Below, piece by piece: positions 13,885 to 41,764 of a stretch of DNA of 64,000 nt (position 1 is the stretch's first letter; each line of letters begins with the position of its first letter). The notes under the pieces are model-generated. The model had not been told where the DNA came from. It searched no databases and was given only the letters and a program-made list of their open reading frames with translations. This DNA comes from Candidatus Bathyarchaeia archaeon (GTDB lineage: Bacteria > Patescibacteriota > Microgenomatia > PFEM01 > JAFGMK01), in assembly GCA_035529595.1 (NCBI GenBank), contig DATKWK010000023.1:206961-270960 (forward strand), read 5' to 3'. The translations under genes were made by a program, and so were the position numbers.

Positions 13885-14429
13885 AGAGCAAATGCATCCT
13901 ATATTGTCGGTTCGCGCTTTTTGACGCTGTGTCTGGGCGCAAAAAGACAGTGCACGGGGTAGGATTTACACCTACGAAACCGATTAAGGTGGCGGTTTTA
14001 CAGACCGCTGCATTTGCTACTCTGCCACCCGTGCCTTTCGGGCAATTAAAAAACCGTCCTTAATATAAGGACGGTTTTAACCGTGGTACCACCTTATTTG
14101 TCAGGGTTTGTTGGAATTAACCAAAAAAAACCGCCCAGAGGCGATTTACCCTAACCTCTCCGGCACTCCGGATGAACCGACATGCCTTAGCGCTGTAACG
14201 GGCGCGCCCGGAAGAACTTATTCCCGATCTGAAATTGAGGATTGATTCTTCAGCTCCAAGTGGGTAATTCGATCCGGGGATACGGTAAGCTTTCACCCGC
14301 CGCCTACTCTCTTTTGTCACTCCCCTTCTCTACTTCACCACTCATCAATGCCTTTTTCTAAATTGTTGCGGAATTTATATCATAAATCTTTTGCTCTTGT
14401 CAAGTTAATGTGTTAGAATTTTTACTGAA

Positions 14430-28405: not shown

Positions 28406-30415
28406 CTAGTATAGTCTCTGGGATCTTGCATACGCAAGAATCTTTCCGGCCATTCGTCTGCTAATTGGCACTCCCAGTCCCCCATAGCCGCCCGTAATGT
28501 TAGTTTTACTAGAGCCGGGTGGACTAATCCTGATAACAGGATAGGTATAAACAGTACCGATTGACTGAGGATCTAAATCAAATCTTACTTCTACTGTCTG
28601 TAATTCATGCCTACCGTCTGGTTTCTCTACAAACATAACCGTGGTTGTGCTGTTGTCCAGCTCAATGACCTCTTGGATTAGGCAGTTTTGCCGATTAAGT
28701 GAATTTTCGATTAAAATCGACCAAACACGATCATAGAGTGATTCTAGTTGATCGGTTTCTATTCTGGCTGATCGTTCCGCTATGCCTTGCCTGATGACTA
28801 ATTGGGCTATCTCTGCAGGCGATTTTCCGCTTTCGCCTGGTGTTAAAGCACGCCCAGTGATTAAATCTTGCCTGAAAACACCATTATGCCAGGCGTCAGT
28901 AAACTCTGCCCTGCTCATTCCTGTAATAGTCGTAAGATCATCGTTTTCCATAGCGATATAATCTTCGTAATCAAGCTCATCCAAATTAATTGATCTGCCG
29001 ACATGGACACTGGTTCCGGAATGTCCCGCTAAAGAATCTCTTTTAAGAACCCAAGCTTGTCTATTATTTTCGATAGTATCGATCTCAGTATCGTTTAGAC
29101 AAAGGCTTCGGTAGCTCTCATCGCCGGGATAGAGACCGTCGTTTTGCCTCCGGAGCATGTTAGCTTGGGGAATGCATCTTTCAAGAATATTTTTTATTCC
29201 TTCAACGCCCATGTCCTTGACCGCCCGGGATAGCGAGAGATCGTGGCTAAGTTGATCATGGGCTAGAATTCTAGAGACTGTTTCCCAGACCCCAAAACGG
29301 TCTAAGTAATCTTGATTCCCAAGCATTACGTCCATTTTCTTGTCGGTTGAATAAGAATTAAAAGGATTTACTACTTGTTGTGTTGCTAGTTTTAAGAATC
29401 TCTGCCAGATAGTCTCTTTGCCATCGCTACATAATTTTTGATCGGTATCATCTTTGAAATTCTGCCATAAATCCAGATTTTCCATTGCTTCTCCGTGTAA
29501 TCGTCTGATTATGCTGACTTCTATTATTTCATCCGATTCTGTGGATTGACAAATAACTAAATAGTAGGGTTCTCTTTGAGGTAAGCTAATTTCTTTAATA
29601 TCCACGATGTCTCTTGGGTCAAAGGCAAGAGCCTGCTGATGATATCTGCCCTGATATCTTTGAGCTGTTTGATTAGCTTCAAGACCGGATAAAGAGCTTC
29701 TTTCTCTCCAGGCCAGATAACCAACTATCGGGTAATCCTTTCTACTCGTCGCCAAACGATATCGGGTGATCATTATTCTCATTATCTGCTCGTCGCTATG
29801 GGGAGCGATTTTTATTCTTTGATCTTCGGATAACTGAAGGCAGAGACCTAATATCTCTTCAACTGTTCGAAGAGCATCGGACACTATTATGTCACCCTGT
29901 GGTTCGCCGCCATTGTTTTCCATCCAGTAAGAAGCACCGCTATTTAAATCAGTATATGTATCTCCTCTCCATCGATGCTGACTTTTTGTCGGAAAAAAAG
30001 GTTGCGAGCGCATAATCTCCCGCGTCAATTGATCAACACCAGCCTCAAAGAAATTTCTTAAGTCTTCATCTTTACTCATTTTCATTAAAATAGCAGCTCG
30101 AACAAGATTGGTTGCTTGAGTATTAAGACCAAGCCCTCTTTCACTTTCTTCAGGAATGATAGTAGGTACAAGGGGGACATTAATTCGTCTGGTAACTTGG
30201 TGTGTTGTTGGATTTTCGAGGAATAGGCTTCTCTCTTGGTAATCCTGCAGAATCCGAAGCGCACCCTCTCGTCTTTTTTGGTCGGAAAGACAATGGGCAA
30301 TAAAGCGGCACATCTCTGACTGTAATTCTTGGAGAGTTAAGGATTCCAGTCTTTCCCGTTCTTGTTCAAAGACGGGGCTTTGAATTTCTAGTTCTTTTCC
30401 AGAATGCAAGACCAT
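28406..30415 (-). CDS. Large hypothetical protein (669 aa) with no recognisable motif, in an operon with the M20 peptidase
   Basis: Uninterrupted 669-codon ORF with normal local composition. It has its own promoter and leader, and stops 10 nt before the M20 start. Confidence 0.5.
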   Translation of the reverse strand: MVLHSGKELEIQSPVFEQERERLESLTLQELQSEMCRFIAHCLSDQKRREGALRILQDYQERSLFLENPTTHQVTRRINVPLVPTIIPEESERGLGLNTQATNLVRAAILMKMSKDEDLRNFFEAGVDQLTREIMRSQPFFPTKSQHRWRGDTYTDLNSGASYWMENNGGEPQGDIIVSDALRTVEEILGLCLQLSEDQRIKIAPHSDEQIMRIMITRYRLATSRKDYPIVGYLAWRERSSLSGLEANQTAQRYQGRYHQQALAFDPRDIVDIKEISLPQREPYYLVICQSTESDEIIEVSIIRRLHGEAMENLDLWQNFKDDTDQKLCSDGKETIWQRFLKLATQQVVNPFNSYSTDKKMDVMLGNQDYLDRFGVWETVSRILAHDQLSHDLSLSRAVKDMGVEGIKNILERCIPQANMLRRQNDGLYPGDESYRSLCLNDTEIDTIENNRQAWVLKRDSLAGHSGTSVHVGRSINLDELDYEDYIAMENDDLTTITGMSRAEFTDAWHNGVFRQDLITGRALTPGESGKSPAEIAQLVIRQGIAERSARIETDQLESLYDRVWSILIENSLNRQNCLIQEVIELDNSTTTVMFVEKPDGRHELQTVEVRFDLDPQSIGTVYTYPVIRISPPGSSKTNITGGYGGLGVPISRRMAGKILAYARSQRLY

Positions 30416-30426
30416 TTTTTTGAAAT

Positions 30427-30630
30427 AAAAAAACCTCCCTGATTTGGGAGGTTCCCTGTTAATACTTTTTACTTTTTAGATTTTACTTTTTATTTTCCAT
30501 TTTCCTCCCAAACCAGCGATTACCTTGCAATAAGGCTAATAATAATGCTGTTAAGGAGGGTTCTGTGCATAATAATTCCTCTTTCTATTGTTGAGCCCAT
30601 ATTATGGAAACATCACTAATAATATGTCAA
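30427..30630 (-). promoter_or_regulatory. Promoter plus attenuator-like leader upstream of the 669-aa gene
   Basis: On the - strand: TTGACA (30630-30625), 18-nt spacer, CATAAT (30606-30601); upstream UUUGGGAGG element; hairpin CCUCCC-AAAUCA-GGGAGG plus U7 (30451-30427) just before the ATG at 30415. Confidence 0.5.
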
Positions 30631-30660
30631 GAGTCAGTTTAACTGACTTTGATCCTGAAC

Positions 30661-31266
30661 TTATCCTGTTTGGGTAGACATATAGCGTTCTTGGGAAAGC
30701 ATAAACTGGGTGCCGGATTTTCGGACCTGGCCCCAATAATAGTTGCGTTTTTTGCTTTTCTGGTTACATAGTGCCAACCAATGACGCGATTCGCTAATAT
30801 TCTTGCGCATAAAAATGATAAACTCGCGTAGTTTTTCAAGAAATGTCAGGTGATAGACGCCAGGTTCCAGCGGCGCCTGCATAGCGGCAATTTTTACTTC
30901 CTTAGCCAGCTCCTGCGTCCCTTGAACTAGTTTGATTAATTCACTTCGAATGGCTTGAATTTGAAGTTTAACTTCCTCCTCCGCCTTCTTAAAAATGACT
31001 CTTTCCTGGGTGCGGATATTGGTAAAGTCCTGGCCTGACCATTTAAATTTTTCTTTTCTTTCAAAATCGGAGGCGAATTTTTCAGATGAAGATTCACTAC
31101 CGGAAAAAGAGCTTTGAGGGGAACGGCCGAACATTTGGTCAAATGAATTCTTGGTTACACCACCTAAGACGTCTTTTTTCACTGACTGACCAAATCCGGA
31201 ACCGATGTCCTTTAAAGATTCCAAAAAATTGCGTTTAATAATTTTCTTTTTCTTTATGTCGTCCAT
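30661..31266 (-). CDS. Hypothetical protein
   Basis: 201-aa ORF with a Lys-rich N-terminus; no motif recognised. Confidence 0.4.
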   Translation of the reverse strand: MDDIKKKKIIKRNFLESLKDIGSGFGQSVKKDVLGGVTKNSFDQMFGRSPQSSFSGSESSSEKFASDFERKEKFKWSGQDFTNIRTQERVIFKKAEEEVKLQIQAIRSELIKLVQGTQELAKEVKIAAMQAPLEPGVYHLTFLEKLREFIIFMRKNISESRHWLALCNQKSKKRNYYWGQVRKSGTQFMLSQERYMSTQTG

Positions 31267-31308
31267 TTTTGAAGCCTTAAGTCAGCTTTAAATTTGTGAC
31301 CTATAATA

Positions 31309-32223
31309 CTATATTTTGGACAGGATGTCAATAGCTTTTCTCTTCCGTAAAATCTGTCTGATGTAAGCTTTTTCGGTGGCAGTTTGGAAATTTTTTTGGA
31401 TCTTTTCGTTACCGGTAGCCTTAATCATCTCATCAACTTCCTGATCACTGACTTGGATATTTTCTCGATTGGCAATTTCGGAGAGAATCAATTCCAGCTT
31501 AAGTGATTCTTCCGCCTGCGTACGATATTCTCCTTTTAATTGTTCCAGAGTTTTGCCGATCGAAGCTAAATACTGTTCAACGGTAATTCCTAAGCGCGCC
31601 GTTTGATCAATCAGTCGCGAAAGCATTCGGGTAATTTCCTGCTCGAGTAAGATTTCCGGTAAGCTGATATTCACCGTTTTTATTAAAATAGAAAAAATCC
31701 GGGAAAGCTTTTTATCATCAGGCTGACCTTCTTTTTTGTCAACATTCGGATCTTTTCCCGGAACCCAGATCTTCTCAGGCGCTAAGGTCTTTCTGATTTC
31801 TTCTTTATAATCTTTCAGTTCAACCGGGGGTAATTCGGCTACAATCGCCTTCAAGGTCCAGTCTTGTCCTTCTTTGGAGTCAATCAGATTAAACTTGGGG
31901 TTAACCACCGGACTCAGTTTGTGAGTTTTAATTGCTTCCAGATAGACATCAGTCAATAAGTTCTTGATCATTTCCTGATAGATCTTACTCTTGCCGATTG
32001 TCTTTTCAACCAGTTTTTCCGGTGCTTTCCCCGGTCGAAAACCTTTAATTTTGGCGTCTTTAGTAAATTGTCCAAGAGTGATGTTGTAGCTTTCAGCAAC
32101 AGCATCCCAGGGGATAGTAATGGTGATTTCAACATTGCCGTTTTTAAGGCGTTCGACTTTGCTCTGGGAAAGGGATTTAGTCGCTGTTTTCTGCGGTTTT
32201 TCTCCCTGGTTGTCTTTTTTCAT
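31309..32223 (-). CDS. tig: Trigger-factor-like chaperone (short form)
   Basis: N-terminal ribosome-binding signature GFRPGKAP and a TF-like C-terminal arm; shorter than canonical TF, and the PPIase domain is not obvious. Confidence 0.5.
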   Translation of the reverse strand: MKKDNQGEKPQKTATKSLSQSKVERLKNGNVEITITIPWDAVAESYNITLGQFTKDAKIKGFRPGKAPEKLVEKTIGKSKIYQEMIKNLLTDVYLEAIKTHKLSPVVNPKFNLIDSKEGQDWTLKAIVAELPPVELKDYKEEIRKTLAPEKIWVPGKDPNVDKKEGQPDDKKLSRIFSILIKTVNISLPEILLEQEITRMLSRLIDQTARLGITVEQYLASIGKTLEQLKGEYRTQAEESLKLELILSEIANRENIQVSDQEVDEMIKATGNEKIQKNFQTATEKAYIRQILRKRKAIDILSKI

Positions 32224-32256
32224 TGGCGGAAGTATAACACTTTGAAGACAAAAATA

Positions 32257-33408
32257 TCAAATTGAAACTTCCGAAATTTCTATTTTCTCAATTATTGATT
32301 TAAGTAGTTTTTCGACGTTGAATTTTTGCTCCTCTCGTCTGATATCTTCGATTTTTGTTTTTGTAGCCGGATGCTTGGGAATAAAAAGAGAACAGCAATC
32401 TTGCTGGGGTTGAATCGAGATGGGATAGGTACCGATTTTTTCGCCGAGATTGATTATCTCCTGCTTATCATGGCCAATAAGAGGTCGGTATATCGGTAGG
32501 TTAATACCAGCGCTAATAGTAGCCATGTTTTCCAGTGTTTGACTGGCAACCTGCCCGAGGCTTTCCCCGGTAACCAGACCCAAATATTTTTCTTTACCAG
32601 CAATTGCTTGGGCAACCTTAAGCATTGCTCGTCGATAAACAACGACCAAAAAACGGTGGTCAATCTTTTTAAAAGCTTCCTCTTGGAAGTTTAAAAAGGG
32701 CGCTAAGTAAAGTTTTGACCTGAATTGGAAATTATTCAGATGCTTGATAATTTGCCTGGTTTTTTCAATTGAGACTTGATTGGTCCTTGGATAACTATGA
32801 AAGTGAATAAAGTGAACTAAAGCGCCTCTTTTAATCATCTGGTAAGCAGCTACCGGTGAATCAATTCCTCCGGAGATCAAACACAAAAGTAAACCGGCTG
32901 TCCCAACGGGTAATCCTCCGGGGCCTTGATTTTTAGCAAAATAAACAAAGGCCTTTTTAGAACCAATCTCGATATTGATATCCAATTCAGGTTGATTTAA
33001 GTTAACCTTAACGCCCATGTTATCAACTATCAATTGACCGATTATTTGATTAATTAAGGGACTGGTCAACTTAAAATTTTTATCAGACCGGCGGGCGCTA
33101 ATCTTGAAGGAAGCAAATTTTTTCTTTTTAATTAACCGAAGGACATCTTTTTTAATCCTTGCCATATCTTTGCTAATCTGCCAAGCAAGCGAAAAATTGG
33201 CGATGCCTAAAACTTGATTAAGTATCGGCTTCAGCCTGGTGAATTCGTTTTCATTATCAAGGATAATAACCAGGCGGCCAAAATCGCAGGTTACTTTATT
33301 CTCCTTGGTAAATTTCCTGATGTTTTCGGTCAGTACTTTTTCAAAAAAAGGCCGGTTTTTACCCTTAAGGGAAATTTCGTGATAATGAATAATAACAACC
33401 GGGGTCAT
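32257..33408 (-). CDS. thiI: tRNA 4-thiouridine synthase ThiI-like (THUMP plus PP-loop ATPase)
   Basis: N-terminal YHEISLKGKNR and PP-loop SGGIDSPVAAY. Confidence 0.7.
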   Translation of the reverse strand: MTPVVIIHYHEISLKGKNRPFFEKVLTENIRKFTKENKVTCDFGRLVIILDNENEFTRLKPILNQVLGIANFSLAWQISKDMARIKKDVLRLIKKKKFASFKISARRSDKNFKLTSPLINQIIGQLIVDNMGVKVNLNQPELDINIEIGSKKAFVYFAKNQGPGGLPVGTAGLLLCLISGGIDSPVAAYQMIKRGALVHFIHFHSYPRTNQVSIEKTRQIIKHLNNFQFRSKLYLAPFLNFQEEAFKKIDHRFLVVVYRRAMLKVAQAIAGKEKYLGLVTGESLGQVASQTLENMATISAGINLPIYRPLIGHDKQEIINLGEKIGTYPISIQPQQDCCSLFIPKHPATKTKIEDIRREEQKFNVEKLLKSIIEKIEISEVSI

Positions 33409-33658
33409 GCGTCGGGTTAATAATTGATAGCTGGATGGTTTTTAAGCGCGGTGTTGGGTAACCGGAATTTTTCTTCTTTGGTCAATTGCCGGATTTCTGC
33501 GTTGGAGGTTACGTCTAAATGCATTCGGATTTTGATACTTAGTCGGACCTTTCTTTGACGCACTCTTTTTTTCAGTCATGACGATAATATTTTAACACAA
33601 TCTGAAACGGGTTTGTCAACTTGGATTGATATATTCCGGGTGGATGAGGGCCCACTTC

Positions 33659-34108
33659 TCAAGTTTCGCCTTCGGATTTATAAGATTCCCCGGCGTTGAA
33701 AAGACTGATTAAGTCCGGCTCCTCAAAAATATTACCGATTTTTTTTACTGAAGAAAGTCTTAATGCCGTTAAGGGAGTTTTTGTCACTTCTTCGATAAAT
33801 TGACCTCTCTCTTTGTCCCAGCGTATCAAGCCAAGCCATTTCCGGCCGGTAAAAAAATCATATTCTTCAATTATATCTCCATCATAAAGCGGGTCATTTT
33901 GCCGATCATACCTTTCGGCAAAGCGAATTGTTTTCAAATCCTCGTCCATTTCTGCTTTGATTCTTTTTTTCGTTACACCGTAAGGATAGGTAGAGACGGT
34001 CTTATCGAGGTATTCTAAAATTACATATCTTTTTTCGTTGTCACGGACGATCACGTCGCAAATCTGTCTGAGTTGTCGATGATAAACTTTGTAACGTATC
34101 ATATGCAT
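33659..34108 (-). CDS. Hypothetical protein
   Basis: 149-aa ORF; no motif recognised. Confidence 0.35.
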   Translation of the reverse strand: MHMIRYKVYHRQLRQICDVIVRDNEKRYVILEYLDKTVSTYPYGVTKKRIKAEMDEDLKTIRFAERYDRQNDPLYDGDIIEEYDFFTGRKWLGLIRWDKERGQFIEEVTKTPLTALRLSSVKKIGNIFEEPDLISLFNAGESYKSEGET

Positions 34109-34261
34109 TGTTTTACTCCCACAACATGTCCTGAAAATAATTATTCGTCTGGAATTAAAAGAACATTAATATACCAAATGTAAATTAACTTTTCAAGAGG
34201 TAAATTAAAGAAGTTCATTATAACGGGTATCGATTACAACGGAAAAAATTCTGATTATTCT

Positions 34262-35155
34262 TCAGAGGTAACCTTTTAAAAAAGATACCCAAAGATCGGC
34301 AATATTACGACTATACCCGCCGGCGAACATGATTGCTAATTTGGAAAAATTTTTAAATCTGGCGCCGATCTTCCTAAAAGAGTCAATTTCCAGCTTAATG
34401 TGAGCCAAAGGGTCTTTCTTATAGGTATCGACACCGAGAACGAGCACAATTAAATTAGGATAGTATTTACTAGCCAGAGGAATAACCAGGTCAAGAGCCT
34501 TCAAATACTTTTTTTCTCCGGTCCCGGGCGATAAAATAGCATTGAGGTTATAGCCTTCACCTACTCCGACGCCTTTTTCTTCAGCATAGCCAATTCCCGG
34601 ATAGGTGGTTGACGGATCTTGATGAAGGGAAATAGTAAAAACCGTCGCTTCATTGTAAAAAATTTCCTGAGTGCCTTGTCCTGCATGAACATCCAAATCA
34701 TAAATCATTGCCTTTTTAATTTTACCTTCTTTTTGGAGCTTGCGCACAGCAATAGCGTGATCGTTAAAAATACAGAAACCGGAACTACTGTAAATTCCGG
34801 CATGATGAAAACCGCCCATCAGATTAATCACTTTTTCTCCATCGAGGGCAAGCTCTGTGGTTTTAATCGAGCCGCCGACTGAGAAATAAGCCGCTTCGAG
34901 AATTTCGTTGTTAAGAGGAGTATCCGCTGATAAGAAACTACTCGCCGCAGCTAGTTTTTTGACTTTTTGCAAGTAATGGATATCATGAACAAGAAGAATG
35001 TCCTTGTCCCTTGCCTTTGGCGGTACGATAACTTCGTATTTGATACCTAATCTTTTTAACTTATCAAAAAAAACCAGGCTTCTTTCTGATTTCCAAGGAT
35101 GGTTTGGGCCAAAATCATATTTTAAATATTTTTCATGAAAGACTAATTTAAGCAT
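34262..35155 (-). CDS. Histone-deacetylase-family (arginase/deacetylase fold; AcuC/acetylpolyamine-amidohydrolase-like) protein
   Basis: GGFHHAG...GFCIFNDHAIA catalytic signature. The start is moved to the internal Met (MLKLVFHEKY) so it does not overlap the upstream PRTase gene. Confidence 0.65.
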   Translation of the reverse strand: MLKLVFHEKYLKYDFGPNHPWKSERSLVFFDKLKRLGIKYEVIVPPKARDKDILLVHDIHYLQKVKKLAAASSFLSADTPLNNEILEAAYFSVGGSIKTTELALDGEKVINLMGGFHHAGIYSSSGFCIFNDHAIAVRKLQKEGKIKKAMIYDLDVHAGQGTQEIFYNEATVFTISLHQDPSTTYPGIGYAEEKGVGVGEGYNLNAILSPGTGEKKYLKALDLVIPLASKYYPNLIVLVLGVDTYKKDPLAHIKLEIDSFRKIGARFKNFSKLAIMFAGGYSRNIADLWVSFLKGYL

Positions 35156-35166
35156 CTTGGCGTTTT

Positions 35167-35817
35167 TTAAAAGCGGGCTATTAAAAGCGGATTGACTTCC
35201 TTGTCTTCGATAGTATGCCATTTTTGGTACGAAGCAGCGATTTTGAACGGATAGTGTTCGGGGTGGGTATAAAGGCAAACCGCTTCTTCAATCTCATTTT
35301 TAACCAAATTGAGACCGCGGTGGGAAGCAGCAGGAATAGCCACAATGATTTTTTTCGGACCTCTTTTTTTGATCGCTCTAATAGCCACCAGCATGGTGTA
35401 ACCGGTAGCCAAACCATCATCAACAATGAGCGCGGTTTTAAAAAATAAATTTACGGGTAGCCGGTTTTGGATAATCGCCTCTTTTCTTTTTTTTAGAAGG
35501 GAAAATGCCTCTTTGATAATTAATTCTGTTTCTTTGGAATTTAAGCTAAGATTTTTGATTGCCTCTTGATTTAATAGGATAGTGCCGTCAAAACTTACCG
35601 CGCCAAAGCCGAACTCGGGTTTACCCGGATAATGGAGCTTATGCACCAGCAGAATATCAAGTGGGCAACTGTATTTCTTGACGATTTCGGCGGCTATCGG
35701 GACTCCGCCATTAAGAATAGGAAGAACTACCAAGCGCTCTTGGCTTAAAAAAGTTAGTTTTTCCGCTAGCCTATTTCCCGCGTCGGTTCGGTCAATGAAA
35801 AAAGGATACTGGTCCAT
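35167..35817 (-). CDS. Phosphoribosyltransferase-domain protein (type I PRTase fold)
   Basis: ALIVDDGLATGYTM PRPP-binding motif. Confidence 0.65.
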   Translation of the reverse strand: MDQYPFFIDRTDAGNRLAEKLTFLSQERLVVLPILNGGVPIAAEIVKKYSCPLDILLVHKLHYPGKPEFGFGAVSFDGTILLNQEAIKNLSLNSKETELIIKEAFSLLKKRKEAIIQNRLPVNLFFKTALIVDDGLATGYTMLVAIRAIKKRGPKKIIVAIPAASHRGLNLVKNEIEEAVCLYTHPEHYPFKIAASYQKWHTIEDKEVNPLLIARF

Positions 35818-35825
35818 TTGTTAAA

Positions 35826-36221
35826 TTAAGGCAGCTTTAGCTCTTGGCTGATTTCTTCCGATTCCAGGTCAAGTTGAGACAGATCCGTTTCCTTCAGATC
35901 ATTTTCGATAACTGATATTTCGTCAGATTCCGCTTCGGGTTGTTGCTGGTCATTAACCTGAATTATAGTCGGAGTTGGAGTATTCACCGGGGGTACCGGC
36001 CGGTAGAAATCTTGGCTCGTTTTATGTCTTAATTTTTGATTAGAGGACCAGAGAAAAAGCGTTATTATCAGCGAGATTAATCCGACTAAAAAGAAAAGGT
36101 ACCAAAAGTTATCAAAAGAGCTACCTTTTTTTTGTTCTATCGCCGGATTTGAAGTCTTGATGGCGCTTGATTTTTCTTGATAATCTTCGATTACGCTTTC
36201 TACTTTGATCTGCGGTTCCAT
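35826..36221 (-). CDS. Hypothetical single-pass membrane protein
   Basis: 131 aa with a central TM; no motif recognised. Confidence 0.35.
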   Translation of the reverse strand: MEPQIKVESVIEDYQEKSSAIKTSNPAIEQKKGSSFDNFWYLFFLVGLISLIITLFLWSSNQKLRHKTSQDFYRPVPPVNTPTPTIIQVNDQQQPEAESDEISVIENDLKETDLSQLDLESEEISQELKLP

Positions 36222-36224
36222 AGT

Positions 36225-36947
36225 TTATTCACTTTCTGTGCTTGGATTGACTGTTTCCAACAAACTTTTTAGGTCTTGAACAATTTCCATTAATAACTGC
36301 CTGATTTCAATCAGATTATTTTTTACTTCCTTCAGCAAGTCAACGACTAAAGCAAAATCTTCTTCAGGTTTTTCACTTTTTAGAATTATATCCAAACTGG
36401 CCTTTGTTTTCTGAATGGCGTTCTCAAGTTCAATAATTTTTTCCCGGGCTAGGTTAATTCTTTCTCTAATCTCTCCGGTATTGGCATTTGGATTGTTGTC
36501 TTCGATTTTAACCAGCCTTGACTCAATTTTTAAAAGTATGTTTCTGATTTTAAGAGTGGCGTGCTCGAACCTGTCGATCATTTTGTTAAACAGTTTCTCG
36601 ATTTTGATTCTGGTTTTTTCAGCAATCTTCTTCTGGAAGGCTTCTCTTGATTGAATCTTTTTTTCGAGCGAAGTCACTCTTGTTTCCAGTCTATGTCTGA
36701 ATTCGTTCATCGAATCCAGGTTTACCGAAGTGCTGACGGCAGTGTCTTTCGACTGGAAGACAGAAGGAGTCGCAGTAAAAGTAATTTCATCTTGAAATGT
36801 TTTTTTTGAGATAGTAGAAAGAGTTGCTTCCTGCTTATCTTTTGCTTGGCAGGAACAGTCGGTTAACAAAGAAAATTTAAAGCCGGTCAGCTTGCTTAAT
36901 ACCAAAGACAGACATAAGACTATAAATAAATATTTCCGTTTTTTCAT
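36225..36947 (-). CDS. Hypothetical secreted/lipoprotein-like coiled-coil protein
   Basis: Signal peptide with a Cys after the hydrophobic core; heptad-rich. Confidence 0.4.
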   Translation of the reverse strand: MKKRKYLFIVLCLSLVLSKLTGFKFSLLTDCSCQAKDKQEATLSTISKKTFQDEITFTATPSVFQSKDTAVSTSVNLDSMNEFRHRLETRVTSLEKKIQSREAFQKKIAEKTRIKIEKLFNKMIDRFEHATLKIRNILLKIESRLVKIEDNNPNANTGEIRERINLAREKIIELENAIQKTKASLDIILKSEKPEEDFALVVDLLKEVKNNLIEIRQLLMEIVQDLKSLLETVNPSTESE

Positions 36948-36992
36948 TAGAAAATAATCTATTTTTCTAATTCTAACCGAATGATCAATGTT

Positions 36993-37664
36993 TTATAACT
37001 TAATGTAAGTTTCAATAGCCGCTTTTTTTCTCAAGTCTGAAAAAAGACTACTGTAAATTTCATTCATCTTTTGACTTGTTAACATTTGGCGGGCTTCTAA
37101 AGCCAGATCTGCCTCGGTTGTCGCCTCCATCTGGAGGCTGTTTTGTTGAATATAGGCTGCTACTTCCTGGTCGGTGATGGCAACTTTTTTCTTCAAGATC
37201 TTCTCGATTATTAACTGAAGTTTTACACGATAGATAAATTGGTCGTATGAAAGAAATTGTTTTTCTAATTCCTCCATAAGTTTAGTGCGCCCGTCAAACT
37301 CCGTTTCTACGCGTTCGATTTCTGAATCGACCTCTTCCTGACTTACCGATATCTCAAGACTTGAAGCTTCATCTTCGATCAGTTTTTCATTAACAATCTC
37401 GTCAAGAGACCGGGCCAGGTAATTTTGGTAAATACGTATGGCCAAGTCCCAGCTGTAAATCGGATTTCCATTTACGGTAGAAACGACAACTAGCCCCTTG
37501 AATTTAAGCCCTAAAGTAAAAGCGATTAAAATTAACAAAATAAGAAGAATCAAACCTAATGATCTGAAGTGTCTCTTTTTGCTGACGGATTTTTCAAGAC
37601 TAACTTCTAAATTGTTATCTTTCTTAACTGACTTAAGCCGGGTTGTTTTTTTTGTTTCGGGCAT
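36993..37664 (-). CDS. Hypothetical membrane-anchored protein (SurA-N-like chaperone fold possible)
   Basis: N-terminal TM then a region reminiscent of the SurA/PpiD N-domain. Weak call. Confidence 0.3.
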   Translation of the reverse strand: MPETKKTTRLKSVKKDNNLEVSLEKSVSKKRHFRSLGLILLILLILIAFTLGLKFKGLVVVSTVNGNPIYSWDLAIRIYQNYLARSLDEIVNEKLIEDEASSLEISVSQEEVDSEIERVETEFDGRTKLMEELEKQFLSYDQFIYRVKLQLIIEKILKKKVAITDQEVAAYIQQNSLQMEATTEADLALEARQMLTSQKMNEIYSSLFSDLRKKAAIETYIKL

Positions 37665-37891
37665 GGTTATGTTTATTTAATAATAATTGGTCTTCACTAT
37701 AACAAGAGCTTTAATGAAAAGAAATAGGTAAATATAAAGTGTAATTTAACAGCAGTTAATTAGATTGCCCTTTTTGATTTATTTATATTCTTCTATTTAA
37801 ATTGATCCGGCTGAGACCGGTAACGGTTTTAATTGAAAAACTAAGCACGGGCTAGATTTTCTTTTTTCAGCCAGCGATCAAATAAAGCAAA

Positions 37892-38221
37892 CTAGAAAAA
37901 ATGGCTTTGTAATTCTAGGAGTTTTTCACACTTATAGAGCTGACACTGTTTACAGCTTTTAATGTTTTTAGCAAATCCGCATTTTCTAATTTTGCATTGG
38001 TGACAATATAAATATATTGGACCATTAGATAAGCAGCCTTTACAGTTGATGTCTTTAGGATTAACCGGTGGACGGTTCCTATTGTCGGTACGATATCTTT
38101 TCGTCCAATCTTCAGCGGTTTTTTTTCTCAACTTGTCATCATCAGTTTGGGTGGCGATGAAGGCAGCGCAAGCACTGCAATCCAAGCCGCACATAGCGAT
38201 GTATTTTTGGTTTTTTTTCAT
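37892..38221 (-). CDS. Cys-rich small protein (DUF3795-like zinc-ribbon)
   Basis: CGLDCSAC...CKGC...CHQC...C...CKQC cysteine spacing. Confidence 0.45.
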   Translation of the reverse strand: MKKNQKYIAMCGLDCSACAAFIATQTDDDKLRKKTAEDWTKRYRTDNRNRPPVNPKDINCKGCLSNGPIYLYCHQCKIRKCGFAKNIKSCKQCQLYKCEKLLELQSHFF

Positions 38222-38225
38222 TTTT

Positions 38226-38648
38226 TCAGTTTAAAGGGGCTTTAAAAATTCGTTTTCCTCTTTTTAGTTCTTCGCGTACTCTAACTTTTAACATTTCTTC
38301 AGTCTCATCCCAACCAACAATGAATAAACTCTCTGGGCCTCTGATGGGAAATAGTCTTTGTTGGTGCGGAGTATTTGCTCCTATTGCTCCCTCTTGTCCT
38401 AGTAAAGGACTAGAAAAATAAAGTCCGCCAGATAAAAAATGATGGGCTAACAGCTCTGTCTGGTGCTGAAGTCGGTTCAAATCTTCAGTTACTGCTTTCT
38501 CATTGGAATAAACAATAGAACCATCAGTTAAACACAGCACCGACTCGCCTGCTGCAAGATGGATTTCTTTAAATCCTTCATCTCGAAAGTTCCTTACGAC
38601 TATAGCATGGCCTACAGATGGTTCTCCTTCGCGGTTTTCCATAGCCAT
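38226..38648 (-). CDS. Hypothetical protein
   Basis: 140-aa ORF, 4 nt from the next gene; no motif recognised. Confidence 0.35.
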   Translation of the reverse strand: MAMENREGEPSVGHAIVVRNFRDEGFKEIHLAAGESVLCLTDGSIVYSNEKAVTEDLNRLQHQTELLAHHFLSGGLYFSSPLLGQEGAIGANTPHQQRLFPIRGPESLFIVGWDETEEMLKVRVREELKRGKRIFKAPLN

Positions 38649-38658
38649 ATCGATGTAA

Positions 38659-38838
38659 TTATATTAAAATATGGCAACTTTTGCCTTTGAGCTTTTCAGG
38701 CAACAAGTTTTTGTTTCTATCAGGATATTTTTCGTAACCCTTCCCATATCCTAATTCTTTCATCAATTTGGTAGGTGCGTTTCGTAAATGAAGCGGAATT
38801 GGCAGGTTTCCGTATTTCTTTACATCACTTAAAGCTCT
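38659..38838 (-). pseudogene. Displaced 3'-terminal fragment of a rarA gene (encodes the last ~60 aa; no start codon)
   Basis: Translates to [40 protein letters not shown]..., which is 39/39 identical to the C-terminus of the intact rarA at 40568..41764, while the DNA is only about 80 % identical with mostly synonymous changes. Confidence 0.7.
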
Positions 38839-39284
38839 ATCATATCAAGGTCAGGTCTATCAAATACCCTAGCGCCTTTAACTTTTTTGCCTTTAAGCAT
38901 TTCTTCTTTTAGCTTTTTATAATTTTCAGGCTCTAAGTAAAAATCCACATCGCCTACGTGGTATCTATAGGGGTCGGGTCTACGAATATAAAGATAGGTG
39001 TAAGTAGTTTCTGGAACCTCACCCTTTTTAGGAATGACAATCGGTTTGCGGAGTCGGTAGTATTTCTGATTTACAATCTCCGATTTCTCAGTTAGTCTTT
39101 CTCGTATTTTTATAAGTTTTTTGTATTCGCCTTCGTAGTGGCAAGATACTCCCATATTTCCTGCATTGGGCAAATATTTTCTAAATGACTGCTTACAAAG
39201 TTTGTAGCACTCAAAATGTATATGCTTTATAGCTTCTAAAAGTTGGGTCTCATTTTTAATCGGACTAAATCGGTAAAGCTTCAT
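38829..39284 (-). CDS. Hypothetical protein (islet cargo)
   Basis: 151-aa ORF whose stop overlaps the start of the rarA fragment; no motif recognised. Confidence 0.4.
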
Positions 39285-39333
39285 AAGTTTTCTGCTAAGA
39301 TAAGTTAATATAAATCAAAAGCAACTTCATCAA

Positions 39334-39768
39334 TTATTTTCTATTTTTCTTATATTCAATAAATTTTTGAATAGTGTCAGAGTAGCTTTCTGCCAAATTC
39401 AAACTAAGAGCTTCTTTTGGCGTTAGCCATTTATATGCCTTGATTTCTACACCATCAAGCTTTACTTTTTCGCCTGCTAACCTATAATACACATCAAAGT
39501 AAATAAAATGTGCTGGACGATGGAAATCTTTTGAATCAATTAGTTCGCCCCAAACAATTACATCAATAAATTTGACTTTCAGACCGACTTCTTCTTCTAC
39601 CTCTCTTGTAATACCTTCAGAAACCTTCTCTCCAGGGTCAATATGACCTCCAGGCATTGTCCACTTATTGCTCCATTTTGGGGATTGGGTCAGTAAGATT
39701 TGGCCTTCTTCGTTTTCAATAATCGCTGAACCAACTACCTCTACGCTCCTCGGGAATTTATTTTTCAT
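39334..39768 (-). CDS. NUDIX hydrolase
   Basis: Nudix box GGHIDPGEKVSEGITREVEEEVGL. Confidence 0.85.
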   Translation of the reverse strand: MKNKFPRSVEVVGSAIIENEEGQILLTQSPKWSNKWTMPGGHIDPGEKVSEGITREVEEEVGLKVKFIDVIVWGELIDSKDFHRPAHFIYFDVYYRLAGEKVKLDGVEIKAYKWLTPKEALSLNLAESYSDTIQKFIEYKKNRK

Positions 39769-39959
39769 TGCCTATATTCTATATCACGGATTCACTGTAG
39801 GCAATTGCAGATTGAGGGTTAGAAGCGAATGAATTTCACTAATGCAAAATATGATCATCTTAATAATGGCTGGTCAACAAGCTCGTTAATTTTTTCAGAT
39901 TTTATACAAAATTTGTAGCCTGTTTTTGGAACTTTTCTTACGAGTCGCACTTGAGGATT

Positions 39960-40220
39960 TTATTTGTATAACTGACTATGAGTGCCCAGTGTCTCGAAAA
40001 TAACAATTGAAGGTTTGTGTTCTGAGTATATTGCTCGCCAGTCGCCAGTGATATTAATACTTTTGTAGCCTTTAAGACTTCCAGTCAACGAATGGTTGTT
40101 CAGAAGAGAGTGATAAGGATTTTCGAGAAAAAACCCAAGTCTTTTGTCAAAAGCAGAACGGATTTTTTTAGGTGCCTGGGTGTATTGCTTGACAAATTTT
40201 CTGCTAAAGCTGGTTCGCAT
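39960..40220 (-). CDS. Type II toxin, RelE/ParE (YafQ-like) family
   Basis: 86 aa; the KFVKQY...LTGSLKGYKSINITGDWRAIY pattern is typical of the RelE/ParE fold. It overlaps the antitoxin gene by 17 nt. Confidence 0.75.
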   Translation of the reverse strand: MRTSFSRKFVKQYTQAPKKIRSAFDKRLGFFLENPYHSLLNNHSLTGSLKGYKSINITGDWRAIYSEHKPSIVIFETLGTHSQLYK

Positions 40221-40506
40221 ACTTTCTATTAGGGTTATTCAACCATTTTATGGCTTCATCTGCTTTGTCAAGAGCAGGAGAAATAAAACCCACTTTAATA
40301 TCTTTTTTAGAGTTTTTTAGAGTTTGTAAAAGATAATCAGTAGGCTCTTCGTTTAGGTTGAAAGAAACACTTTTCGTGCGAATCAATTGCCTTAAGTAGG
40401 CGTTAATGATGGCACTTAAACTCAGGCCTAATTTTTCAGCTACTGCTCGAGCCTGGTTTTTAATTTCGGTATCAGTTCTGATATTAATTAGTGTAGTGTT
40501 ATTCAT
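40204..40506 (-). CDS. Type II antitoxin, RelB/DinJ family (ribbon-helix-helix)
   Basis: INIRTDTEIKNQARAVAEKLGLSLSAIINAYLRQL RHH motif, upstream of and overlapping the toxin. Confidence 0.7.
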   Translation of the reverse strand: MNNTTLINIRTDTEIKNQARAVAEKLGLSLSAIINAYLRQLIRTKSVSFNLNEEPTDYLLQTLKNSKKDIKVGFISPALDKADEAIKWLNNPNRKYANQL

Positions 40507-40567
40507 AGTAAAGTCATTATATACACAATGTGGGTATATGTCAAGAAGCAGAAATTCAAAACCGAAC

Positions 40568-41764
40568 CTAAGATTTATAATACTTTTTACCTTTTATTTT
40601 ATCAGGTAAAAGACTTTTATCCTTATCAGGATATTTTTCATAGCCTTTTCCGTAACCTAATTCTTTCATCAGTTTCGTGGGAGCGTTTCTTAGATGGAGC
40701 GGAATGGGAAGGTTGCCGTACTTTTTTACATCACTTAAAGCCTCCATATAGGCGTCGTAGGCGGAGCGGTCTTTTCTGGCCAATGCCAGGTAGACTGTAC
40801 CGTGAGCCAGGTTTTCTTGGCATTCCGGGTAGCCAATGGTCTCACAAGCCCGGAAAACATCGTTGGCGACCACCAGGGCGGTTGGTTGGGCCATGCCGAT
40901 ATCCTCAGAGGCAAAGATAACCATCCGGCGGGCGATGAACAATGGATCCTCCCCTACCTCGACCATTCGGGCCAGATAATAAAGGGCGGCATCGACGTCC
41001 GAAGCTCGCATGCTTTTTATAAATGAACTGATGGTGTTGTAATGCTCCTCGCCTGCCCGGTCATAGAAGAGATTTTCTTTCTGCGCGGCTGTTTCTATTT
41101 GTGAGACAGTTATCTTTTTAGTCTTAGGAAATAACTTACTCGCGATTTCAATAATATTTAATACCTGACGGGCATCGTGGTTTGCAATCTGCAGTAAGAA
41201 TTTACTCGCATTATTTTCCAAGCTAATTTTAAGATACTTCTCTCCTCTTTTGGCAATTTCTAAGAGATCGGTTTCCGCAAGTTCGCTTAAAGTCAAAACT
41301 CGGCAGCGGGAAAGCAGCGGTCCGATAACCTTAAACGAAGGATTTTCAGTAGTCGCACCGATCAAGATAATCGTTCCGTCTTCCACGTAAGGTAAGAAAG
41401 CATCCTGTTGGGCCTTATTGAAACGGTGAATTTCGTCAATAAAAAGAATTGTTTTACGGCTAAAACCAACTAGATTTTTTTTAGCACCTTCGACTACCTT
41501 ATTGATATCTGCTTTTTTAGCACTGACCGCTGAATATTCAATGAAATCTGATTTTGTGGTCTGAGCAATAATTCGTGCCAGGGTTGTTTTTCCGGATCCG
41601 GGCGGTCCCCAGAGTATCAGTGAGAAAAGATCGCCTTTTTGGATAAATTTTCTGATAATTCCACCCTGGCCGACCAAGTGCTCCTGACCGACGAATTGGT
41701 CAAGATTAACCGGCCGGATTCTTTCGGCGAGCGGCTTGTAAAAGTCAAGTTGAGGCAAATTCAT
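40568..41764 (-). CDS. rarA: Replication-associated recombination protein A (AAA+ ATPase RarA/MgsA)
   Basis: Walker A GPPGSGKTTLA, Walker B LFIDEIHRFNK, and the MgsA C-terminal domain. Confidence 0.9.
   Translation of the reverse strand: MNLPQLDFYKPLAERIRPVNLDQFVGQEHLVGQGGIIRKFIQKGDLFSLILWGPPGSGKTTLARIIAQTTKSDFIEYSAVSAKKADINKVVEGAKKNLVGFSRKTILFIDEIHRFNKAQQDAFLPYVEDGTIILIGATTENPSFKVIGPLLSRCRVLTLSELAETDLLEIAKRGEKYLKISLENNASKFLLQIANHDARQVLNIIEIASKLFPKTKKITVSQIETAAQKENLFYDRAGEEHYNTISSFIKSMRASDVDAALYYLARMVEVGEDPLFIARRMVIFASEDIGMAQPTALVVANDVFRACETIGYPECQENLAHGTVYLALARKDRSAYDAYMEALSDVKKYGNLPIPLHLRNAPTKLMKELGYGKGYEKYPDKDKSLLPDKIKGKKYYKS

Follow-up and report, generated by a model that had tools for sequence, protein, structure and literature searches.

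A duplicated rarA 3' end around a small toxin-antitoxin and NUDIX islet in a Microgenomates-type Patescibacterium

How does a gene come to have two 3' ends, one still attached to it and the other stranded beyond four further genes? This question is raised by the rarA locus in a 64,000-nucleotide (nt) stretch of contig DATKWK010000023.1 (the window, meaning the whole stretch of DNA that was analysed), which belongs to a Microgenomates-type Patescibacterium and carries the label Bathyarchaeia in its NCBI record. The sequence-only reading of this DNA had explained the arrangement by clean site-specific integration of a foreign element into the 3' end of rarA. That explanation was not supported: the joint beside the stranded tail cuts off the last 30 codons of a 181-amino acid (aa) gene at a microhomology, the starts of comparable remnants vary from locus to locus, and in one relative (L183) the remnant edges a segment shared between lineages. 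We favour, at about even chances, the alternative that the rarA fragment is the scar of a recombinational import at a variable hotspot, with one homologous and one illegitimate end. We would class the locus with the scars that horizontal transfer leaves at hotspots, a general kind that is already known.

The two rarA tails

A repeat search of the window identified a direct repeat of 157 nt, 80% identical, with copies at 38679-38835 and 40585-40741 (spacing 1906 nt). As had been claimed, the copies bracket four genes: relB, a toxin gene, a NUDIX gene and a 151-aa open reading frame (ORF). On the minus strand, the order is rarA, relB, the yafQ/relE-type toxin gene, NUDIX, the 151-aa ORF, the rarA-like frame, a 140-aa orphan gene and DUF3795. 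The intact rarA/mgsA gene (40568-41764, minus strand) is full length at 398 aa with all domains present (Pfam MgsA_C at 181 bits, AAA_assoc_2 and AAA), and the closest database relatives of its product are Microgenomates/Patescibacteria proteins, 72-80% identical. The repeat copy within it (repeat family D1, minus strand) covers codons about 342-393 by codon alignment. The other copy lies in a start-less rarA 3'-end fragment (38659-38835, minus strand) that runs from codon 342 to the stop. The two match at 125 of 157 nt, ~14 standard deviations over chance (background 41.7 +/- 5.8 matches); the next-best ungapped match of the fragment within the window is 68/157.

The frame at 38659-38838 has no start codon, and in-frame stops lie just upstream. 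Its residues ALSD...YPD equal A342-D380 of RarA at 39 of 39 positions, in agreement with the start-less 180-nt frame that had been described. Over these 39 codons, 99 of 117 nt are identical and each of the 18 differences (3 at first, 15 at third codon positions) is synonymous, so that the proportion of synonymous differences (pS) is 0.715 and the non-synonymous divergence (dN) is 0. Under neutrality, the probability that all of them would be synonymous is ~1e-12. Beyond codon 380 the tails have diverged (dN about 0.37): rarA continues with KDKSLLPDKIKGKKYYKS, and the counterpart in the fragment is a diverged 19-residue tail. A hybrid of the rarA body and the fragment would read CCTATATGGAGGCTTTAAGTGATGTAAAGAAATACGG. 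The longest identical run between the copies is 17 nt, GCTTTAAGTGATGTAAA, at the 5' edge of the repeat. The earlier description of a related but diverged tail, and of a difference of ~20% of nucleotides that is mostly synonymous, was thus borne out.

The possibility was considered that the tail was duplicated in place and then diverged, or that the repeat is an assembly chimera; nothing beyond the existence of the repeat speaks for either. A dead copy would have gained non-synonymous changes, and none of the 18 differences is of that kind. Every one of the 18 is synonymous and synonymous sites are close to saturation, so the divergence arose in separate genomes, and divergence in place is excluded. 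Both tails evolved within working rarA genes of different genomes, and the fragment is a xenologue of the intact tail. Furthermore, a Logan contig (L001), assembled independently from a different run, is 100% identical to the window over 28829-40895, ~12 kb, so the rarA-tail arrangement is real and an assembly artefact is ruled out. The truncated 151-aa protein is additionally recorded on contigs from NCBI, JGI, ENA and Logan. Local duplication and chimerism taken together have a very small probability.

The fragment itself is a dead remnant, and the 180-nt frame should be annotated as a rarA pseudogene fragment, with rarA intact. The NCBI locus tags 03870 (140-aa gene) and 03880 (151-aa ORF) suggest that tag 03875 was given to it, perhaps as a pseudogene. 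At 38673-38685, over the aberrant last codons of the fragment (SCHILI) and 10-25 nt ahead of the start of the 140-aa gene, lies a small hairpin (GGCAAAAGTTGCC, with a T-rich run after it) that resembles a terminator.

The joint and the truncated gene beside it

The 151-aa ORF (38829-39284, minus strand) had been taken for a plain hypothetical gene. The ORF is present as described, but homologue alignment showed it to be a 3'-truncated copy (151 of 181 codons) of a conserved accessory gene with a putative VOC/YecM-like fold. More than 1300 homologues were found, nearly all of 176-183 aa, 70-85% identical and aligned over 100% of the query. The window copy lacks the last 30 conserved C-terminal residues, which read YDPDxDALGYVST..VRVKLS..TKL in the alignment, and the missing 30 codons are absent from the rest of the window.

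A three-way nucleotide comparison placed a 6-nt microhomology, GCTTTA, at 38830-38835, exactly at the joint. It is common to the 181-aa gene, where GAGCTTTA is followed by CGAC, and to rarA, where GAGGCTTTA is followed by AGTG. Read across the joint, the 181-aa family continues from GATATGATAGAGCTTTA into CGACCC, the window continues from GATATGATAGAGCTTTA into AGTGATGTAAAG, and rarA continues from TATATGGAGGCTTTA into AGTGATGTAAAA. The blastn alignments to homologues of the 181-aa gene stop at 38830, and the stop codon of the 151-aa ORF is supplied by rarA-derived sequence. No fusion protein is made, because the frames of the ORF and of the rarA fragment differ. Judged by its sequence, the junction next to the fragment is illegitimate and not a clean attachment (att) site.

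The 181-aa family matches no Pfam, NCBIfam or PHROG model. An AlphaFold2 model of the family (m3bb78736d66b) had a predicted local distance difference test score of 94.3. The best Foldseek match in the PDB was 1k4n (E 5e-5, template modelling (TM) score 0.57), followed by methylmalonyl-CoA epimerases at TM about 0.3. The VOC fold is defined by paired beta-alpha-beta-beta-beta modules that match solved VOC structures; the family is predicted to be VOC/YecM-like, the YecM-like match being the best at TM 0.57. The truncated copy is probably dead, since the model predicts that its last strand and helix are removed. In Microgenomates, members of the family (P0002-P0120) lie in dense arrays of small accessory genes, all on one strand. 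An intact parent element was sought near the nearest homologues (P0002, P0003, P0007, P0029 and P0034), where unrelated accessory arrays were found, without rarA or an integrase.

In homology-facilitated illegitimate recombination, one end of the incoming DNA is anchored by homology and the other is joined at 3-10 nt of microhomology, with truncation of the gene at that point. The process was reportedly described in natural transformation of Acinetobacter baylyi and Streptococcus pneumoniae by de Vries and Wackernagel and by Prudhomme et al., both in 2002. It was defined experimentally, whereas at this locus it is read from a scar. The 6-nt GCTTTA lies within the range of microhomology of such joints. 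In the import that we favour, DNA from a related Microgenomates lineage would have entered, by recombination, the variable spot that directly follows rarA. If the import consisted of the rarA tail, relB-yafQ, NUDIX and the truncated gene, the homologous edge would lie in rarA itself; if it consisted of the fragment and the 140-aa gene, that edge would lie in the downstream backbone. The other edge would have been sealed illegitimately at GCTTTA, with codon 151 of the 181-aa VOC-like gene joined to codon 342 of the rarA tail. The pathway that we infer is homology-facilitated illegitimate recombination of DNA that had been taken up, without a dedicated integrase. The outcome would be an intact rarA and, between the copies, a RelB/YafQ module with its own predicted promoter and a NUDIX defence candidate. 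The only gene noted in the window that may relate to DNA uptake is a PilM-type pilus gene.

The source and direction of the transfer were also considered. Among 117 RarA relatives from the database, the 39-mer is matched at 89% at best and by none in full, and for this reason the two source lineages appear to be closer to each other than either is to any sampled lineage. The tail of the fragment carries N382, N384, E388 and L390, the states of the nearest RarA relatives, and seven of the eight nearest relatives match it better than the tail attached to rarA, which carries KSLLPDKIK, known from more distant relatives. We lean slightly toward the imported block being the one attached to rarA, with the resident tail displaced. 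The earlier claim thus stood insofar as the short copy is displaced or foreign; that the attached tail is the foreign one is favoured weakly, on 14 residues. The opposite polarity does occur, in L183, where the remnant lies beyond an intact rarA.

Base composition was uninformative on the direction of transfer in the window. A patch of rarA rich in G+C at third codon positions (40730-41100; 0.56-0.68 against ~0.3-0.45 in neighbouring genes) was rejected as a sign of mosaicism: the same profile is present in L086, L085 and L002, and the patch, in the MgsA_C-coding part of rarA, is a trait of the gene family as such. Clustering the tails and fragments of different genomes by nucleotide sequence likewise gave no signal, all pairs being 70-83% identical, which is saturation.

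The spot downstream of rarA and the origin of the islet

The rarA locus was compared in five lineages of relatives whose RarA is 72-78% identical to that of the window. The common backbone runs from a MacB ABC system through two or three small genes to rarA and, past a variable stretch, on to genes for a SurA-like protein, ThiI, trigger factor and DUF5660. This variable stretch is different in each of the five lineages. It holds DUF3795, a deaminase and a Ble-like gene in L086; DUF3795, NUDIX, glyoxalase, an rve remnant and dUTPase in L183; a nitroreductase in L184/L185; a 99-aa gene followed by RNase J on the opposite strand in L182; and, in L085 (7998-11034), a 236-aa gene, an Mrr-like nuclease and an Old-family ATPase/TOPRIM nuclease, after which comes a frameshifted rarA-tail remnant. 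In the window, the same place is taken by RelB/YafQ, NUDIX, the truncated gene, the rarA fragment and the 140-aa gene. DUF3795 is the first gene after rarA in L086 and L183. PADLOC identified the window NUDIX as PDC-S07, Old in L085 and PDC-S01 in L120. Since differing cargo follows a common backbone, rarA by this synteny borders a variable accessory and defence spot, and the PADLOC matches support its defence character. The islet cargo is absent from these relatives with the same backbone; the comparison yielded no pre-insertion allele.

An initial scan found a second rarA tail in 3 of ~165 rarA loci, one of them L001, which represents the genome of the window itself. When close relatives were scanned again at higher sensitivity, L183 was added, and a scan of viral contigs added an orphan tail in L181. 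In L085, the decayed, frameshifted remnant begins near codon 346, after the Mrr/Old cargo. In L120 (10950-13292), from an unrelated, GC-richer organism, a 315-nt repeat, ~95% identical, begins near codon 318; it is an internal 3' part of rarA that ends 12 codons before the stop codon, and it flanks a single AAA_14/DUF4143 ATPase gene (PADLOC PDC-S01, E 5e-163). The L181 tail (1547-1705; IMG/VR provirus UViG_2698536526_000002) covers residues about 350-398 with an in-frame stop and lies inside the predicted provirus, with no rarA body nearby; comparison of L181 with E. coli genomes and known phages gave no match. In L183, an intact rarA is followed 36 nt later by a 31-codon remnant from near codon 374. 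Over the five loci, the remnants therefore start at codons about 318, 342, 346, 350 and 374, three clustered and two not, and both boundaries and cargo differ among them.

The L183 remnant carries further information. A stretch comprising the remnant, a spacer and DUF3795 (L183:9221-9740) is 88% identical to the rarA end, spacer and DUF3795 of L086 (5889-6408), while the backbone genes of the two are 65-73% identical; no other fetched pair has such a patch. Like the pS of 0.715 and dN of 0 in the window, this contrast with the backbone marks a foreign segment. The pattern indicates a recent exchange of hotspot cassettes between lineages, and the rarA tail in L183 borders the exchanged segment. 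Identities of 84-91% were recorded for L183:9186-9740/L086:5889-6408 (the tail remnant and DUF3795) and for L183:10274-10400/L086:7625-7751 (a Ble-like gene).

In the main rival, the locus is what remains of a site-specific integrative element like those of icd/e14 or phage 21. A tyrosine or serine recombinase would have inserted this element, together with the rarA 3' end that it carried, at an attB near codon 342. The integrase and everything between codon 151 of the 181-aa gene and attR would have been lost afterwards in a deletion, which the recombinase may have mediated at a pseudo-site. Such an element would account for an intact gene that ends in one tail while the other tail is displaced, and for the purely synonymous differences. 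The 17-nt identical run at the 5' edge of the repeat agrees with it, as do the remnant starts of the window, L085 and L181, which all fall within 9 codons, and the cargo, which has a mobile-element or defence character (the toxin-antitoxin pair with a consensus promoter, NUDIX/PDC-S07, Old in L085 and PDC-S01 in L120). Against it, the islet contains, as had been stated, no integrase, and no remnant of one either: all four ORFs between the repeats are annotated otherwise, and the non-coding gaps measure only 49, 191 and 61 nt. Beyond the islet, the search for Phage_integrase and Resolvase domains gave no match among 20 further mid-sized ORFs of the window and tblastn with two integrases gave none. 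The gene-truncating microhomology junction obliges one to assume an extra deletion. Moreover, the boundaries in L120 (~318) and L183 (~374) differ, the intact rarA of L183 with a remnant 36 nt further on is not the product of a single integration, and no related phage or plasmid was found, the islet DNA showing no similarity to known ones. We regard a decayed integrative element as a less likely but serious alternative.

Two prophages beside rarA in IMG/VR were examined as candidates for elements that target the gene and were rejected. In L178, a tRNA-Val lies between rarA and the integrase; in L175, an apparent 3' fragment of another gene is found there instead.

A Campbell-type single crossover was also weighed. 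Here a small circle carrying the rarA tail, relBE, NUDIX and the truncated gene would have recombined within the 157-nt tail, leaving both copies chimeric, after having been closed at the GCTTTA joint in the donor. Such an event leaves the shared segment as a direct repeat and the gene unbroken, GCTTTA would be the circle-closing junction, and the ~95% identical, 315-nt internal duplication around one gene in L120 resembles an insertion-duplication. At 80% identity and with no identical run beyond 17 nt, the copies in the window are a poor substrate for a homologous crossover; a 1.9-kb circle would have to be assumed without explanation, and L183 would remain unaccounted for. This route is improbable.

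Import at a conserved flank is thus favoured over an integrase because no recombinase was found in the islet or among the 20 further ORFs, the microhomology joint destroys a gene, the boundaries shift and there is no likeness to phages or plasmids. Several observations nevertheless weigh against such an import. The remnants of the window (342), L085 (~346) and L181 (~350) start within 9 codons, just upstream of a hyper-conserved motif, a clustering that hints at site preference. The 5' edge of the repeat, the place expected for an att core, is taken by the 17-nt identical run, and identical runs of no more than 17 nt are short for a RecA-dependent crossover within the repeat. The tail comparison involves 14 residues and a sequence set that was selected on total score and is biased. 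Neither a donor genome nor an allele from before the insertion was found, each islet protein is alone in its cluster at 90% identity, and the recombinase search covered 64 kb of the genome only. The islet DNA additionally had no high-identity match in any fetched locus, and the exact rarA protein of the window is not indexed in the database searched.

The arrangement can be compared with known systems. The icd/icdC pair with e14 in E. coli K-12 consists of an intact gene and a C-terminal fragment at the other end, with mainly synonymous differences (PMC13626634, citing Hill et al. 1989). The present locus resembles icd/icdC with e14 and phage 21 in that a conserved gene remains intact, its 3' end is supplied beside the insert and a C-terminal fragment pseudogene lies at the far end. 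Repeats of the target 3' end with an intact target are common to both. However, e14 has its own integrase, defined att sites and precise excision, whereas this locus has no recombinase, no clean att junctions, a microhomology cut in a cargo gene and near-saturated synonymous divergence. A search of the literature on rarA as an integrase attB turned up two cases and no other: bont/E and an IS607-like insertion in the vicinity of rarA. In the bont/E insertion of Clostridium botulinum type E and C. butyricum, rarA is split and accompanied by an intact copy (PMC8310154). There the resident gene is split and the large insert brings along a complete additional rarA; at the present locus, in a Patescibacteria genome, the duplication around 1.7 kb comprises only a 59-codon tail. 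Like defence and accessory hotspots, the locus has the same core flanks with different small cargo in each relative (toxin-antitoxin, Mrr-like plus Old, NUDIX, glyoxalase/Ble-like). The hotspots of well-studied bacteria are usually tied to integrases or satellites, and none were seen at this locus.

The window junction and the cassette common to the distant lineages L183 and L086 suggest recombination at the edges of conserved genes as the route by which accessory and defence genes move. We propose tentatively that the 3' end of rarA in Microgenomates is a hotspot edge at which cassettes are exchanged without an integrase between lineages at least 30% apart in their backbone, the remnants being footprints of such exchange. 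It is equally doubtful, though conceivable, that this exchange proceeds by DNA uptake and homology-facilitated illegitimate joining, with cassettes that include toxin-antitoxin pairs, NUDIX/PDC-S07, Mrr plus Old, DUF3795 and Ble-like genes. If true, the remnants would attest directly, at the genomic level, to transformation-type gene flow in bacteria of the candidate phyla radiation (CPR), and would be a usable marker of its events. Little is known of gene acquisition by the episymbiotic, reduced-genome CPR/Patescibacteria, in which integrases and prophages are rarely seen; the locus offers a junction resolved to the nucleotide, at which a truncated cargo gene meets a xenologous gene tail across a microhomology. 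For annotation, the 151-aa "hypothetical" is better named a truncated VOC-like gene.

Genes of the islet and its flanks

The toxin, antitoxin and NUDIX genes that had been recognized in the islet all scored above their family cut-offs. Between the rarA stop and relB, a perfect sigma-70 consensus promoter (TTGACA-17-TATAAT, 12/12 consensus, a pattern match only) is predicted at 40516-40544 on the minus strand. The 100-aa RelB/DinJ antitoxin gene (40204-40506, minus strand) matches Pfam RelB at 44.7 bits (cut-off 22.4) and TIGR02384 RelB_DinJ at 52.3 bits (cut-off 45.65); it shares 17 nt with the toxin gene. The 86-aa RelE-superfamily toxin gene (39960-40220, minus strand) is YafQ-like, with YafQ_toxin as its best match (Pfam, 35.1 bits, cut-off 30) and TIGR02385 RelE_StbE at 38.1 bits (cut-off 27.9). 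By these curated cut-offs, and with the antitoxin gene upstream and overlapping, the pair is assigned as a type II toxin-antitoxin module. The exact toxin protein is recorded only from Logan, and the NCBI, JGI and ENA records that hold its neighbours are without it; the gene was probably left uncalled in those annotations. The 144-aa NUDIX hydrolase gene (39334-39768, minus strand; Pfam NUDIX 81.8 bits, cut-off 21.1) has an intact Nudix box, GHIDPGEKVSEGITREVEEEVGL, read from the translation against GX5EX7REUXEEXGU, and its PADLOC match to PDC-S07 had an E value of 5e-17.

Beyond the fragment, the orphan 140-aa gene (38226-38648, minus strand) starts 10 nt past the fragment's stop and is contiguous with it. 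It matches no Pfam, NCBIfam, PHROG or PADLOC entry and has no homologue in the fetched loci of relatives. The DUF3795 gene (37892-38221, minus strand; Pfam 64 bits) lies, by synteny, on the far side of the variable spot.

Elsewhere in the window, at 13950-14357 on the minus strand, a T-box leader scored 94.5 bits (Rfam gathering score 93) directly upstream of a tRNA-Tyr gene. These are followed on the same strand by sulfatase-like, MBL-fold and TyrRS genes, and a T-box with the tRNA gene first is an unusual layout.

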